Shown piece by piece: positions 38,601 through 47,191 of a DNA stretch of 50,075 nucleotides (positions within the stretch are counted from its first letter, which is position 1; each line of letters opens with the position of its first letter). The notes beneath the pieces are model-generated. The model searched no databases. It was not told where the DNA came from and was given only the letters and a program-made list of their open reading frames with translations. The DNA comes from Sarea resinae (Eukaryota), in assembly GCA_026026165.1 (NCBI GenBank), contig JAPEUD010000113.1, positions 1-50,075 of the forward strand. Direction: 5' to 3'. A program made the translations under genes and the position numbers.

Positions 38601-39169
38601 TGATAGCAAGACGCCATACGTGAGACCCATTTCGAGTCCATCAAAGGCTGTCCGTCAGTCGATAGATAAAAGCAAGAACCGTATGAAGTAGGAAACGAAG
38701 CCCTAATAGATCAATCGGCTCGCTTCCACAGAGCCCACAACGGCCACGAAGACTAGGGGTTCCGCTCACCGAGACACATCCTCCTTTCGTCTCCAACCAT
38801 CATCTTCTACCCTCCACCACACACCCTCCACTTCCTTCCTTCCATCACCCTTTCTCACATAGTTGAAGGCCATCAAAAGCTCTCGACTGCGTTCCGGTCC
38901 TCATCAGAGTACCCAAAGAAGTTGAATATCATCAAACGATCATCGATCTTCCTCTTCTTCTTTGAGCCTTTGCCTCTTCTCATTCCTCACTTCCTCCATC
39001 ATTCTTCATCCTTCAGCCACCCGTCAATCTCTTTCAGAAAGCCTATTACTTTACAAGAAGTAAGTCTTCCCTACTCAAGCTCGTCCTGATCCAAGTCATC
39101 GACGCTTGCTAAGCGTCTTTTCTGCACCTCTAGCAACGCTTCAACGCATCGGAAGAATCCTTTCTGAAG

Positions 39170-42100
39170 ATGTCTTACTCTCCAGTGACTCCTGCCAAGG
39201 GAGCTGGTGATCCAAGTCAAGGCATGATGGGGCTCGCCTCAGACAAGCTAAGTTCAGCCAGCAAAGGCAATGAACAAGCTGCTCTGCATCAGTCTTCTCC
39301 GGCCAGTACGCATGTAGAGACCACGCCCGGCAACAGTGTGCCAGCAACTCCTCTTGGAGGTAAAGATCACGGTAAGTGATTCATTCTCCATAGTCACATC
39401 TTTCTTCACATGTATCCTTCTTGAACCTTCCCTCAAGTCCCGAGTAATGAAGCAGCTTCTTCATGTCTTTCTTTATGGGTAGCAGACTGTATGTCTTCCC
39501 TTGGAGACGTTCTCCTTCATCTCTTCCCTTCATGCAATTCTTTACACCCAGGTCTTGATTACACTGTCATATGTATTTTAAAGTCTTGAAGTTTCTTGAC
39601 AGGAGATGGAAATTGCTGCACACTTTCTTACTCCCCCACGCTTCTTGCTTGGCTTGCCCACTTGTATCCCATCATTCAGTCTTTCTACCTTGTCTCGCCA
39701 CTTGGAGATCGTCGTGTGTTACTTTGGTCTCTCGTACCTTGGTTTGAAGGAGGCATAGCCCACTAACTCGTTGTCGAAAGACTCCATGTCAGGCATCATT
39801 CGTTCGACAAGTTCGTTACATCTTACTCCTTTGAGGGATGGTGTCATGGTCGGACAAGAGTCTCCAGATGTAAAGGTGCAGTCCATTGCTCCATTGTATG
39901 TGCTGGATCAGGATACTGTTGGCGGACATCCCGGGCAGTTGTACAAGCAAGCAGAGGTCGCCCGCGGTAAGCCGACTCATCAGGAGCATACCGTGTCCGA
40001 TGTCTCCAATACTGGGGCCATGGGTAACTTCATGCATCAACCTGCATCCGGACCGCTCTCTCCCGGGGAGCAGGATGTAAAGGAGCTCATCTGTGGAGCT
40101 GCACCTCAGCGTGAGCGTGGCGCACCAGGTTTCGTTGTCCATGGTAAGGATAGCGGAGCGGATGACCCTTTCTTGTCCCCGAGCCGTCGTCAGCATGGTT
40201 CTGCACCAGATGCTGAGCTGGGAACTCCCCAGCGCAAGAGCATGGCTCTCATTGCCACCCCTGGTAGCCGTTCACAAGGCACGCCGAGTCGTCTTCGTCA
40301 AAAATTCATTGGCACCCCGAGACATGGTCAAGTTGCCTCCCCCGGCATTGTTGTTCGCCGTACTCCAGACAAGAACGGCAATCAGTCTGTGTTTTCTCCG
40401 CGTGAGAATCGCATCATCGGTCCGATCTCTGCAGACAATGCCCAGGCAGTGCTGCCACCTGACGCCTGCGTTTTCGTAGCCAAGTAGGTCCTTCTTGACG
40501 AAAGAGATATTCATTGACTGACGTGAGATAGTTTGTCATCTTCTCGTACCGACGATGAATTGCAGGAGTCGGTCACGGATGCTTTCAAAGGGTTCGGCTC
40601 CGTCTATGTCAAGATTCGCCGTGATGCCCGTATGATGCCGTACGCATTCTGTCAATATGAGGTGAGTATCTGTCACATGTGGAGCGTTCTCAGCAGCTAA
40701 GCGATACTCAATAATCATAGAACGTTAAGGATGCTGAAGCCGCAATTCAGCTTGGTAAGAATGCCCTTATTGATGGCCGTAGGTGCCGTACCGAGCAGGC
40801 TAGAGTGAACCGTAAGTAGACTATTGAGAGATCCGACGCAGGGGATGTGATGAGGGCTAATGCTGTCGGTACTGTAGGCTCTCTGTACATGTCTCGAGTG
40901 ACAGGTGGTCCTATTTCCCAACAAGAGGCTCAGCGGGCTCTCCAGGAGTTTGGTCCCATCGAGAAGACATGGGAGTCTTCTTTGACCGAGAAGGAAATCT
41001 ACCAGCTCCCTGAGGGCATTTGGGTAAAGTTCGCATACTTTCAGGATTGTCGTGATGCTCAATCGGTATGTTCCTAACTTTCTAACAAGATGAGCAAAGG
41101 GACTGACATTGTCGTAGTTCTTCAGAGAGAACACCGAGTTTCGCCTCGATCAACCGCCTCCACCTCCGGATGCTCCCATGAAGACGAATCGTCAAGCGAT
41201 CACATTCACAAGCCCGGCTAGCTCCTCTGTTGGGCCAAGCCCTAACCGCACTGTTTTCTGGGATCGCCAAACGCCTTGGAAGAAGATCGAGGAGCGTTGT
41301 TCAGTCTTCGTCGGAGGCCTTAATACCAATGTGACTCAAGAGCAACTCATGAGCTTCTTTGGCAAGTTTGGGCATGTTGTTACAGCTCAATTGATCTCAA
41401 AGCCGTCATTGCACTGTGAGTAAATGTGGTCGGATTAGATCAATTCCTTGATGGCCAGTTGCTAATCCTTGGTGAAGGCAATGGCGTCAATGTGTTTGGC
41501 TTCGTTGAATTTGCAAATGAGGATGGAGCGACGTCAGCCATTGAGAGCCATGTAAGCATTGTCTTTGCTGTAGAAGATAACATTCCAGCTAATCGAATGG
41601 TCCAGGACAAGCATATGATGGATGGTGTCCGCATTCGCGTCGAGCGCAAGCAGTCAATGGACCCTTATTCCCGTCAGATGGTACCACGCACTCCCAGAGC
41701 TGGAGGATATTTGACCGGAGGAAGCCCGATAAGTCGCCGACCCGGCCGTGAGGATTCCTTCACCGGCTACGATCGCCGTGCAGTACAGGAAAAGTCATTC
41801 GACCAGCCTCTTGTGTATAACAATCCTCAAGTCGCACGCCCTGCTGATGGCCTGGATCGACGTCCTTCTGCTGGTGATAGCCGCCAGGCGCTTTCAATGT
41901 CTAACGCAGTTTATCAGATGCCGTATGCGTATTATCCTTCGCAATATCCTCCGGTGAACGGGACACCTCCATACGCCAATTATGGTCATGGTATCGGAGA
42001 CGAGGATTCAGTGCCTGGCTTGTCTCCGAGCGGGCCAACCCTGGCACAGGGCGGATACTCGCACGCTGGATACTATCCTCAGGGACGTGAGCAGATGCAG

Positions 42101-42391: not shown

Positions 42392-44639
42392 GAGCCGTGG
42401 AATCTTTTCAATGCTCTGCATGCCGAAGACTATGTGGGTGAACTGCGAGTAGTGGGTCCTCCCATGTATTCTTCACTGTTCGACGAACCGTCCTGTCTCT
42501 TTTCATATTCAATCTGTCCACAAGCATTCGTGTCCCCAAGACGATTTCTTTTCATGATTGTTTGTCTATTCGTCTTTTAATACTGTTTGTATACTGAAGA
42601 TCGTGTACATGTTGGATCTCGTTCGTCGTTAGGTAGCTTTGCTGCTTAAGGATGGGCGCTGATCAGACAAACGGCAAGCTAAGCATGTATGCCAGTGATC
42701 GGAGGTGTTGCTCGCTAGCCACTGTGGACCAATGCTTGCTAAAGTATCGGCAAGCGGTCTTACAGTCGGCATTCTTGCTCTGGCTCACGTGTACTTTTTC
42801 CTGTCCTTTTCGTTCTTAGATCCGACTCCCTCCGCCATGATCGTCAATACCTGTACAGATCTACTTCACCTTTGGCTTTGTCGACGTTTATCGTTGGCTT
42901 AGCGCTCGACGGGTGTAGAGAACTTATTCAGTCCTGTACTGGTTTGCCAAGGGTAGTTTGATAGTGTCTACCCTTCTCGAGGTCTCAAAGTCTTGTAGGA
43001 CACATGTCCAATGGCTTGTACTTGCTATTCTTTTTCAAACAGCGTCGATTTCGGGAGTGAACATTGATGGACTTCCCTGGGTTTCTTCGAGTGCCTTAAG
43101 TGCTCGACGCGAAAGGAGGGTCACCAGCAAAGAAACCTAGCACATTGCGGGAAGCAGGTGGCGGAAAATTGGCTGGTGGTGGCTTTGGTGTGTAGTTTAG
43201 CTTCGAGCTCTTCACCTGAGCGCAGTCAATCCAACCATTCATGCCAACTTGATACTGGCCGATCTGTGATAGATTGATAGTGACGAAGACCATATGAGAT
43301 GTTCGTCGATAGTGATGCTCGCCCAAGGTGGGATACGACAGTATAATGACCGATAGCTCATCCGATGGATATGCAACGAGAACGGAATAGATTCTTGTAG
43401 GTAAGGTGATTGGGGTGAGGTGATTCTGGACCTCGTCGCAAGTGATAACTTGGCAGTGTCATTATGATTCTTGTCTTCTCGATGATAGGCAACTCGTCAT
43501 CTTGATTGACTTTGGCCTCTATCCGGATCATCATCCTGAGATTTTTCATCATATGGCAATGGAAAGTAAGGTAGGTAGGTGGTATATCTCAGTTGCCCCC
43601 CTCCCTCGCTCGTCTCACCCGTGCCGTGAGAACTCGAGCGGATTAACATTGATGGATGTTTCTTTCTCTTCGCGCGTCTCTTGATACTTTGCTGGCACAT
43701 TGTATTGTGATGTGTTTTGGTCCACTTCGAAGCTAGGAGAGAGGACAATTTGCAGGATATTGATTGGATAGATCACGTGACTGCATATGCAGGGTCCATG
43801 GGGTGACGGCGTGGACGGAGAGATTCTTGAAAGACGGGACGGAGATCTCACTCTCGTTTCACGCGCCTGATGTGGGACGAGTGACGAACGACAATGTGAT
43901 GTGATGGATGGCCAGCGCACCATCAACGCGGACGATTCAGATGATATGCAATAATGTAGGCGGATCTCGAGAAGGTGGAGATGAAGAGATAGGCCTGAAG
44001 AGGGATAACCAAATCTTATCGAGGAATTAATCATGATAGTGTAAGAGAGAGTTCAAGTTGCCAGTACTCTTGACTCTACAGCCTAAATGATCGAGTGTAT
44101 CGATCACGATCTACAGGGTCCTCTAGTCTCCTAGACGTAATAGACTGGGACATATCGTAAGGCAGGTAAATTGGCAAAACCCACCGACACGACATGAAAC
44201 CGAAGCACTCACTTCCCTCCATTCTGTGTCCTCGTCCATCGCGCGCGCGTGCCTTCTCTTGGTATACTTGATATACTTGGCATACTTGATATCCTTGGCT
44301 GAATCGGGAACGAGTCCGTGTGTAGCAATAACAAAGGTTCCCCACGCACACTTTGATAGATATACACACTCGCACACCGCGACTTGGAAATCAACATCAC
44401 CCATTCGGATCCTCTCCACTCTACTCTATTCCACGAGAAGCATACAGCGCTTCTCCGCACCTCTCACCAAGCCCCAAAGACTATCCCCACACACACGCGT
44501 CCCTGAACCTCAAAGCTCAATTGCCGTTCTACAGGACAGATAAAGCTCTCCTCTCCTCCGTCCCGGGAGCCTAGACTACTCCCCACCAAACCATTCCCAC
44601 GACCAGCTCTGCGGCAGCCCAACGCCGTAACGCGTCGCC

Positions 44640-45887
44640 TTGCTGGCTCCCGCCTCCCTCTCGCGCTCCACCTCGACTCCCCTGACCGCATACGGGTCGG
44701 CCCGCAACCACAGCGACGGCCGCGGTAACTACGCCAGCGGTGCGAACAATGGCGGCTTCATATCGCGACTGCGGTCGTTGTCCCCGGCGGGGCCGCCTCC
44801 AGCATATCCGGGAACCAACAGCGCCCTCGACGACAGCCCAGCAACATCGGAAGACCCCGGGACAAACTCAGCTTCGGCCTTGCACCCTCGCGTGGCAGTC
44901 ATCCTGGGCGTGGGGAGAAAATGGCACATTCCACTGCTGATATGTCGGGCGTTGTCGACGGGACCGGCGATATGGTGGGGCTTGAGGTGTACGGCTAGTT
45001 TTGTCAGCGAGCTGTTGTTTGTGGACGAAGTCGGCGGTGCCGCGGGGCCAAGATTCACCACTGGGAATGGGGAGTTTAGTTTCGGTGGGATCGAAGGGGA
45101 TGTGGTCGGAGCAGGAATGGGTCCTCCGGTCAGGGGCGCCGCTGCGTTGGTGAAGTGGGGGATGGAGAGACGATTCAGGGTTACGGAGTTCTTTTTGGCT
45201 GTTCTTTGGGTATGGATGTGTGCTTCAGTTGGAGAAAACAACTAGCTAAGATGCGACCCAACAGTGTTCGGCGTCAGCATATCTTTCTTTTTTCTTCACA
45301 GACTGTCTCATGTCTCGATGGTATTTCCCCCCTCTCAGCTCTTTCCAAGACTGTCCTGAGCCATACTAACAGGACACAAATGCAGGCTTCTATACTACAC
45401 CCCTTCGGCCACGCTGGTCCGTCTCCTCACAATCGATGCCATGAATGCGTATCTCACATCCTGGGTACTGTTCCTGTCGGGCAGCCTCGAGGATCCACAG
45501 CTCATACTCCCGGCATGGGTCTCGATCGCCAGCGTACGTCCCCCCACTATCCATCCATTTCTTCTTCCTCCTGCCATCCTCCCCCCCGGTGCCCCCCAAA
45601 GGTGAACCAAGCAAGACAACTCGCTAACCCCCTATTTCCCCACCGGGACAAAGACACTAACATTGAGCTACCACGTGCTCCAACTAAACGCGAACATCAA
45701 GCGCGAAACCAGCGCCTCCATCTCTGTCTTTAGCATTGCCTCATTTATCTCCATGTGCGCGCTGCTGCTGCAGCTGCACCTGGCGCGCGACGACGAGCCC
45801 GTGGTCCCTGCGTTCGTGTACGCGAGGCTCATGGGCCGCTGGTGCTGGAAGGCTATCGAGGGTGGCGTGAGGTGGTTTGGTGTTTGA
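44640..45887 (+). CDS. EOS1: Eos1-family ER membrane protein; start codon unresolved (no in-frame ATG); 4 exons
   Basis: LHPRVAVILGV..LLICRALSTGP.WWG..TEFFLAVLWCSASAYLSFFFTDCLMSRWLLYYTPSATLVRLL..LPAWVSIA..HVLQ after splicing; stop at 45887. Confidence 0.75.
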
Positions 45888-46628
45888 CTTGGCGATTGAT
45901 TGGGATTGGCTTCTGTCTGGCATCCGTGGATTGGTTGTTACGGCTTCACTTGTCCTTTCTTCTGACGATATCGACTTAATGCGGCGGCGAGAAATAAAGG
46001 GTAGAGCGGGTTGGGTGTTCCCCATCCATGATATCACGTCAGGGTTTCCGATACAACGGCCACACTACCTGCTCGTCTGTCTTCCTTTTCCCCCCAAATG
46101 TTTATCTTCTCTTCTCTTCTCTTCTCTCTACGTTAACAGCAGACTTGCCGCCCTGAAAGCGGTAAAATACAGCATGATGATTTACCCCGGGTAGCTTGTC
46201 GAATTTGAGTGAGTGAATGCATGCAGTGAATAACAGGCGGCGTACTCGATCACAGCGGCATTGCCTGATCAACATGGATGCAGGGCACAAGTACCCTCGT
46301 ACATGCCACGCCGCTTACCTAATCATCCCTCTGTCGCCACATCATAGCCTCCCTCGTTATCTCCGCCAATCAACGTCCGAGAAGGCCTGACGACTCCCTT
46401 CGCCCTCTTTCCCCTCGCGCCCCTCTTGTCTTCTTCGCCTCTCGTCTTCACACTACCCAACCCTACTCACCTCAACTCAACTCAACCCAATCTACTACCC
46501 ACCACCTCGATCCACCACCAACGCTCAAACAGCATCGAATCGACAGCGATCTCATCCTCGCACCCTTTACATCTTCCATCATTTCAGACAAGACACTTAG
46601 CGAGGGTTCATCCGAAAAGCACGAGTTT

Positions 46629-47191
46629 ATGTCAACCGCAAACGTTGAAAGTATCGAAAACCTTAAGACCTTCGGTAGGTGACTGACTGACGAGCGAGAC
46701 TGTCATCTCTGTCTAACTCGGGCCAGATCCCTTCGCCGATGACGATGTTGCTGGCGAGGCTCAGCCCTCTCAGGAGTACATCCACATCCGTGTGCAGCGT
46801 AAGATTCATCTCTCCTCACCTGCGGACCTCAGCGACTGACATCGTTCCAGAGCGCAATGGTCGCAAAAGCTTGACTACGGTCCAAGGCATTCCCGAGAAG
46901 TTTGACCAGAAGCGCATCCTGAAGGTCATCAAGAAGAAGTTTGGTGTGTATTTGTCTGCGCTGGCTACGACGAAGCGTGGAGGCTAACCTGGAGAACAGC
47001 CTGCAATGGCACCATCGTCAGCCATGAAGAAATGGGTGACGTGATTCAGCTGCAAGGCGACCAGCGCACCCTTGTCCAGCAGTTCCTGACCAAGGACCTG
47101 GAACTCGAGGAGGAGACCATCAAGGTGAGCCTTGAACCGAAAGCTTCTCCTTCCCATCACTAACACTGCTTCCTAGGTCCATGGCTTCTAA
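46629..47191 (+). CDS. SUI1: Translation initiation factor eIF1, 5 exons
   Basis: SIENLKTFDPFAD..YIHIRVQQRNGRKSLTTVQG..KKKFACNGTIV..IQLQGDQR..IKVHGF. Confidence 0.96.

Follow-up and report, generated by a model that had tools for sequence, protein, structure and literature searches.

A conserved CUG codon as the probable only translation start of the EOS1 gene in Sarea resinae and related Pezizomycotina

The EOS1 gene of Sarea resinae lies in a 50,075-nucleotide (nt) stretch of DNA (assembly GCA_026026165.1, contig JAPEUD010000113.1, positions 1 to 50,075 of the forward strand), referred to below as the window, and its reading frame contains no AUG ahead of a segment that is conserved in the family. 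The best explanation, to which we assign a probability of about 0.8, is that the window carries an intact four-exon Eos1 ortholog (PF12326 family) whose translation would start at the CUG codon at 44643-44645 and not at any AUG. The frame is closed upstream of CTG 44643, and the first in-frame ATG follows the conserved segment. EOS1 would be a new and well-supported case of a gene that starts only at a non-AUG codon, and such a start appears to be in use throughout an orthologous family of filamentous ascomycetes. To our knowledge, only a small number of genes depend on a non-AUG start for their sole product, with very few known examples in fungi; no report of a non-AUG start of EOS1 was found in the literature searched. 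Yeast Eos1 is a membrane protein of the endoplasmic reticulum (ER) tied to N-glycosylation and to oxidant sensitivity, a role that is backed here by database names only.

In the EOS1 phase (that of the codon at 44631) the frame is closed upstream by TAA 44541 and TAA 44628, and the next stop in the same phase, TAG 45243, falls inside intron 1. The first in-frame ATG, at 45117, comes after the conserved LHPRVAV...WWGLRC segment and is followed by a second at 45162, so that between the upstream stop and the conserved coding sequence only near-cognate codons are found, namely TTG 44640, CTG 44643 and CTG 44682. The only ATG on the plus strand between 44194 and 44921 is at 44749 (acaATGg), in phase +1, where it opens an open reading frame (ORF) of 63 codons closed by TGA 44938-44940. 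A first-pass annotation, made from the sequence alone, had already described the closed frame, the lack of an in-frame ATG until 45117, the three near-cognate codons, the absence of any plus-strand ATG ahead of 44749 (none occurs back to 44194) and the phase, context and length of the 44749 frame, and all of these coordinates were confirmed. The features of the locus are as follows, the boundaries of the introns and of exons 2 to 4 being backed by alignment of the spliced model to annotated EOS1 proteins.

44197..44748, plus strand: ATG-free stretch with the presumed 5′ leader and codons 1 to 35 (ATG count compared with shuffles)
44609..44630, plus strand: relic of a mini upstream ORF, with CTG 44609 at the place of its first AUG, ACG 44622 at that of its second, then CCG 44625 and TAA 44628 (alignment to the element of relatives)
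44610..44629, plus strand: small predicted hairpin in this relic, with a 6-bp stem UGCGGC/GCCGUA and an 8-nt loop (fold of 44600-44660)
44643..44645, plus strand: proposed EOS1 CUG initiation codon (CTG GCT CCC; T at -3, G at +4, C at +5), compared with the homologous codon across 36 lineages
44643..45209, plus strand: EOS1 exon 1, read from the CUG, including the conserved LHPRVAVILGV...CRALST.P.WWGLRC segment
44749..44940, plus strand: +1-frame ORF of 63 codons opened by the first AUG of the region (acaATGg), not conserved in relatives, a possible ribosome sink
45210..45264, plus strand: intron 1 (GTATGG...CAACAG, 55 nt)
45265..45320, plus strand: EOS1 exon 2
45321..45385, plus strand: intron 2 (GTATTT...ATGCAG, 65 nt)
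45386..45533, plus strand: EOS1 exon 3
45534..45653, plus strand: intron 3 (GTACGT...ACAAAG, 120 nt)
45654..45887, plus strand: EOS1 exon 4, with stop TGA 45885-45887

The 552 nt of the ATG-free stretch contain no ATG where 4.25 are expected, an outcome that was seen in 0.2% of 2000 dinucleotide shuffles, and the 555-nt gap to which they belong is the longest ATG-free gap on the plus strand of the whole window. The same 552 nt hold eight CAT trinucleotides, that is, eight ATGs on the opposite strand. The AUG depletion of the presumed leader is strand-specific and goes beyond chance.

Counted from the CUG, the four-exon model has 334 residues and three introns, all of them GT...AG. Its residues 44-334 align to the annotated EOS1 protein P0279 (154/247 identical), and its residues 2-322 to P0154, which is named N-glycosylation protein EOS1. 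Translated from 44631, exon 1 finds 200 relatives at E <= 0.001 in a search among 1.84 billion representatives, with matches of the name N-glycosylation protein EOS1 in Aspergillus, Penicillium, Talaromyces, Coccidioides, Blastomyces, Diplocarpon, Rhynchosporium and others; these named relatives belong to Eurotiomycetes and Leotiomycetes. A precomputed match to PF12326 is present in 32 of the 39 longer homologs retrieved with exon 1, and a Pfam scan of three exon translations, taken one by one and not as a spliced protein, returned no family. The family is most strongly conserved in exon 1, where 31 columns are invariant.

The start region was compared across relatives taken from a scan of metagenome contigs with the exon-1 alignment, which gave 68 metagenomic EOS1 loci with flanks. 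Together with the window, 62 were usable (start region plus at least 60 nt upstream) and fell into 35 clusters at 90% DNA identity; one locus with a short upstream flank that represents a lineage of its own (L060) was added back, for a total of 36 lineages including the window. The loci left unused are L030, L043 and L068 (contigs that break off too soon), L057 and L064 (upstream flank below 60 nt; both match the consensus element and the CTG of the other lineages) and L044 (CTG deleted).

At the start position the codon is CTG in 33 of the 36 lineages and ATG in the remaining three (the groups of L010, L032 and L039). As a control, five invariant leucine columns of the core use five to six different Leu codons each (counted in 34 of the 36 rows, as L032 and L039 were dropped through a pattern mismatch), and of the 338 Leu codons from the start position to WWGLRC, 88 are CTG. 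This pattern points to a near-cognate codon that is conserved beyond synonymous drift, with AUG in its place in some orthologs. G follows at +4 in all 33 CTG lineages, and the next codon is GCT, GCG or GCC, a wobble variation that gives a consensus of CTG GCN TCC (L-A-S, or L-A-P/T/F/Y). An in-frame stop lies at most 60 nt upstream (6-54 nt) in 22 of the 33, and only 6 nt upstream in L012 and L059; from the CTG to WWGLRC, all 33 are devoid of in-frame ATGs. The first-pass annotation had proposed that full-length Eos1 starts at a near-cognate codon and had suggested an alignment of EOS1 5′ regions to look for a conserved one; the proposal is now strongly supported, CTG 44643 being singled out by the cross-species alignment as well as by the spliced contigs of relatives described below.

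In most lineages the CTG is preceded by a second conserved element, which reads ATG CGG CAG CAY ATG CCN stop and corresponds to a mini upstream ORF (uORF), MRQHMP*, with AUG-CCN-stop as its core; shorter forms are MP*, MPS*, MRQ* and MWS*. The CTG GCN TCC sits 7-16 nt after the stop of the canonical element. The frame of the mini-uORF relative to EOS1 varies among lineages, which marks it as a separate reading frame and not as EOS1 coding sequence, and what seemed to be upstream protein motifs (CNAAAHAV, LQCGSICR and AMRQHMP*) are one nucleotide element read in three frames. An upstream ATG occurs within 80 nt of the start in 34 of the 36 lineages, the exceptions being the window and L059 (with TTG at the position of the second upstream AUG); the uORF ends 2-31 nt before the start in 24 of the 36 and overlaps it out of frame in 10.

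The codons of the element were counted in the 24 lineages in which it is ungapped. The second AUG is present in 23 of them and the first in 12; codon 2 is CGG in 22 (AGG and TGG once each), codon 4 is CAC in 10, CAT in 13 and TAC in one, codon 6 is CCG in 17 and CCC in seven, and codon 7 is a stop in 14 (TAA 5, TAG 7, TGA 2). The MRQ* variants have CGG or CGA, and CAG or CAA. With variation concentrated at synonymous sites, the mini-uORF looks translated. The context of its second AUG is weak (C at -3 and C at +4).

In the window, both AUGs of the element are mutated (to CTG and ACG) and only the Pro codon and the stop TAA 44628 remain, so that the AUG-initiated uORF of the relatives is absent there; the 12-nt spacer between stop and CTG is the same as in L009, L011, L033, L036, L041 and L061. 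Given the alignment of the window to the element, the TAA 44628 that closes the EOS1 frame is the stop of the former mini-uORF, a point that the first-pass annotation had missed. The three ATG lineages retain the same layout as the others, in which a uORF (MWS* or MWV*) is followed by a spacer of 13-14 nt, the ATG and, seven codons on, PPPSY (PPPY in L032). As a side observation from L010, L015, L032, L039 and L040, the lineages with an ATG start have this diverged uORF (MWS*/MWV*) and lack the 3′ arm of the hairpin, and their start codon and uORF form may have changed together.

The core of the hairpin, CGGC-N(4-10)-GCCG, is found in 19 of the 36 lineages including the window, and four upstream folds gave z-scores of -1.09 (window), -3.58, -1.32 and -1.60; compensatory changes in the core were looked for across the lineages and none was seen. 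A structure downstream of the CUG that might aid initiation was not supported, as 44643-44740 folds no better than shuffles (z = +1.01), and an Rfam search over 44150-45000 at E <= 1 gave no match.

In the mechanism that we favour, the start would be a CUG that is fixed across related Pezizomycotina (or replaced by ATG), placed a few codons past a stop and followed by an invariant G at +4 and C at +5 and then by codon-like variation. Scanning ribosomes that escape the weak-context upstream AUGs, where a uORF exists, would initiate at this CUG with the initiator Met-tRNA at low efficiency, and those that miss it would begin at the following AUG, invariably an out-of-frame one (44749 in the window). 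A weak CUG start with an out-of-frame AUG beyond it would keep the output of Eos1 low and sensitive to how stringently start codons are chosen.

A stronger claim, that mini-uORF and CUG form one coupled start module conserved across Pezizomycotina, is doubtful. Under it, a uORF of 2-6 codons would terminate 7-16 nt before the CUG and hand the small subunit directly to it or, alternatively, a pause at the Pro-stop that responds to a cellular signal would gate access to the CUG; the CGGC/GCCG hairpin, which the window keeps without any AUG, would belong to the module. If this were true, Eos1 synthesis would be a regulated read-out of both termination and start-codon stringency. However, the ten lineages with overlapping uORFs and the two without an upstream AUG mean that the coupling cannot be obligatory.

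The precise codon is the next matter. TTG 44640 stands directly before CTG 44643, CTG 44682 is also in frame, and near-cognate initiation is often spread over several codons, so a start at one of these (or others), or at several of them, might be considered; it is nonetheless improbable. The codon before the CTG is not conserved among relatives (TAC, AAG, GCG, CTC, ATT, TCT, AGG, AGT and others), L012 and L059 have only AGG and CTG between the in-frame stop and the conserved codons, and three lineages place their ATG at exactly the position of the CTG.

Two contigs of relatives bear on whether the CUG is present in the messenger RNA (mRNA) at all. In L023 (1058 nt) and L007 (1823 nt) all three exon junctions are read through without introns, and compared with the genomic locus L008, L023 lacks the three junction segments and is colinear from 80 nt before the CUG onwards. 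The 163-nt leader of L023 has a single AUG (AUG CCC UCG UAG), which is in the EOS1 frame and is closed by the UAG 12 nt before the CUG, and the first in-frame AUG thereafter is codon 83; the 79-nt leader of L007 has only the two AUGs of the uORF, both in frame +1. The two behave as mRNA-derived assemblies, to judge from their missing introns, and the stop and the absence of an AUG would hold equally for genes that had no introns to begin with.

These leaders weigh on the possibility that a conventional AUG is supplied by an upstream exon, spliced in frame, which was the scenario that the first-pass annotation had named as refuting its own proposal (an exon with ATG 44194, a donor near 44262 and an acceptor such as 44713). 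The ATG, the GT at 44262 and the AG at 44712-44713 are all present and frame-compatible, a branch-like CTGAC lies about 27 nt before that AG, and 5′ exons of this type have been modelled in some annotated orthologs, P0279 among them. Yet the donor (GTATAC) has no G at +5, the intron would be about 450 nt long against 55-120 nt for the other EOS1 introns, and the splice from 44262 to 44713 would remove both the conserved uORF element and the CTG-GCN-TCC codons; the 5′ exons modelled in annotated orthologs are mutually discordant. In a relative, the scenario is contradicted by the L023 leader. Moreover, AG is absent from the interval between in-frame stop and CTG in four lineages (L024, L033, L041 and the window), which leaves no place there for a splice acceptor. 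We regard a spliced-in AUG as very improbable. A related candidate, a conserved intron acceptor just before L-A-S, was rejected, as many lineages have no AG there, the same four have none anywhere after the stop and the spliced contigs keep the leader.

The ATG at 44749 had been seen by the first-pass annotation as a strong out-of-frame decoy that catches ribosomes passing the near-cognate start, and a conserved +1 AUG had been suggested as a check. This reading is only weakly supported. In all 36 lineages the ATG that comes first after the start is out of frame, but its position is not conserved: it lies 13-350 nt away, in frame +1 or +2, and opens an ORF of 9-73 codons, each of the three varying freely. 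ATG 44749 is thus a lineage-specific bystander and not a conserved device; it may serve as a sink for ribosomes that have gone past the CUG, and such a sink effect is a plausible consequence of the layout and not a conserved design.

The same ATG would be the true start if a 1-nt indel (of the assembly or the strain) between 44750 and about 44800, or a ribosomal frameshift, joined its frame to that of EOS1. Its strong context and the runs of C and G at 44781-44793 lend this idea some initial appeal, as did a resemblance of the +1 peptide (MAASYRDCGRC...) to ortholog motifs such as RDGRICR. The resemblance proved empty, since those motifs are nucleotides of the uORF element read in other frames, and the peptide was discarded as an ortholog motif. 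No correction is needed to bring the conserved CTG 44643 into frame with the downstream domain, 33 independently assembled lineages show the same AUG-less layout, and in relatives the first downstream ATG keeps no fixed place or frame; an indel or frameshift has very little to recommend it. A start at the first in-frame AUG, 45117 (ATG 45162 is likewise in frame), or a decaying pseudogene, is scarcely credible, as a product from 45117 would lose the best-conserved portion, with the 31 invariant columns, and all four exons are open, are bounded by canonical splice signals and match annotated EOS1 proteins along their whole length.

Several observations weigh against the CUG start or against the strength with which it can be claimed. 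A purine is found at -3 in only 19 of the 33 CTG lineages, the window having T, and with this position not conserved, initiation of the scanning type at the CUG should be weak. A deletion of about 19 nt, seen against the closely related L046, has cost L044 its CTG. Part of the invariance of CTGGC might stem from an element that acts at the nucleotide level instead of from a start codon. The window's region from the CUG to PPPAY is of low complexity and has no close relative, and its coding status is suggested by the openness of the frame and by its conserved ends. The lineages compared are metagenomic contigs, and their phylogenetic non-independence inflates the raw counts. Finally, the evidence from the window organism itself is indirect: the sole RNA run with the window locus (X1) yields three contigs that cover 45212-46099 only, unspliced, with none near the start, and it bears neither on the 5′ end nor on expression.

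Two of these sources deserve a further remark. In L044 (1460-1510) both ATGs of the uORF are retained, out of frame, and the locus may represent a genuine variant, a copy in decay or a fault of the assembly. The X1 contigs match the window at at least 99% and are unspliced through introns 2 and 3; they may derive from DNA or from pre-mRNA.

Gene starts of this kind have precedents. EIF4G2/DAP5/NAT1 (GUG) and TEAD1 (AUU) are cellular genes whose main ORF is translated solely from a near-cognate codon (PMC5666671). As in these, the full functional protein of EOS1 would depend on a non-AUG start whose codon is conserved among orthologs, and just as theirs were missed by gene finders and early cloning, the EOS1 start escapes gene finders. 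EOS1 differs in that its codon is CUG, in that it encodes a fungal ER membrane protein, in that its -3 context is not conserved and in that most lineages have a conserved mini-uORF 7-16 nt upstream; its start is, moreover, proposed from sequence.

Closer in phylogeny, cpc-1 of Neurospora crassa and its homologs in Pezizomycotina have conserved N-terminal extensions initiated at near-cognate codons (PMC5487733). EOS1 belongs to the same subphylum and likewise shows near-cognate codons conserved over long evolutionary time and interleaved with uORFs, but cpc-1 retains a main AUG to which the near-cognate starts add optional extensions, whereas EOS1 has no AUG that would preserve the conserved domain. 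The main text of that paper does not mention EOS1 (0 occurrences, supplements not covered).

The mini-uORF can be set beside peptide-dependent uORFs such as the MAGDIS hexapeptide uORF of mammalian AdoMetDC and the proline-rich ends of the upstream conserved coding regions (uCCs) of ODC homologs (PMC2811004). Like these, the EOS1 uORF is conserved, has six codons, varies mostly at wobble positions and ends in a proline codon, a position known to affect termination. Unlike in those systems, in which the main ORF starts at AUG, the main ORF would here start at CUG, only 12 of the 24 lineages with an ungapped element have AUG1, and the EOS1 uORF has no known ligand or stalling.

Termination-reinitiation at the termination upstream ribosome-binding sites (TURBS) of caliciviruses and influenza B virus involves a restart near the stop and an increased tolerance for non-canonical restart sites (PMC5972666), and the EOS1 CUG is similarly close to the stop of a preceding ORF. 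In the TURBS systems the upstream ORF is long and a motif complementary to 18S rRNA is required, whereas the EOS1 uORF has 2-6 codons. The order of stop before restart holds in EOS1 for 24 of 36 lineages, ten having an overlap and two no upstream ATG.

A non-AUG start would also explain why the N-termini of public EOS1 models are 'partial' or mutually inconsistent. Eight NCBI EOS1 names in two listings of relatives are marked 'partial', and 7 of 32 retrieved EOS1 proteins lack an initial M and start with L, F, P, Y or S instead, the other N-termini being mutually dissimilar; these erratic N-termini would arise because gene finders cannot see a non-AUG start. In one partial model (P0213) the first residues are exactly L-A-P. 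A sorting of 282 relative proteins by N-terminal motif was uninformative, as most of them are products of ORF callers with arbitrary starts. An annotated Penicillium EOS1 protein (P0254) begins with M-A-P-P-R-R-N-A where relatives show L-A-P-P-R-R-N-A, and may, judging from this comparison, represent a further switch from CTG to ATG.

For annotation, the rule that follows is to begin EOS1 at the CTG of L-A-S/P. Beyond this, EOS1 would be (i) a natural and conserved reporter of start-codon stringency in fungi and (ii) with the mini-uORF lost in the genome of the window and kept in most others, a natural comparison for the effect of a uORF on a non-AUG start.

Some minor features of the window are added here. 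The second and fourth longest ATG-free gaps on its plus strand, at 38683-39170 (487 nt) and 46303-46629 (326 nt), may serve other genes as leaders. About 350 nt upstream of the CUG, at 44264-44297 on the plus strand, there are four tandem units of 9 nt, each ATACTTG plus 2 nt, with ATCCTTG in the fourth; they adjoin a (CG)5 run at 44240-44249 and could be a promoter repeat. One X1 contig differs from the window in the length of a CT-rich repeat just after 46099.

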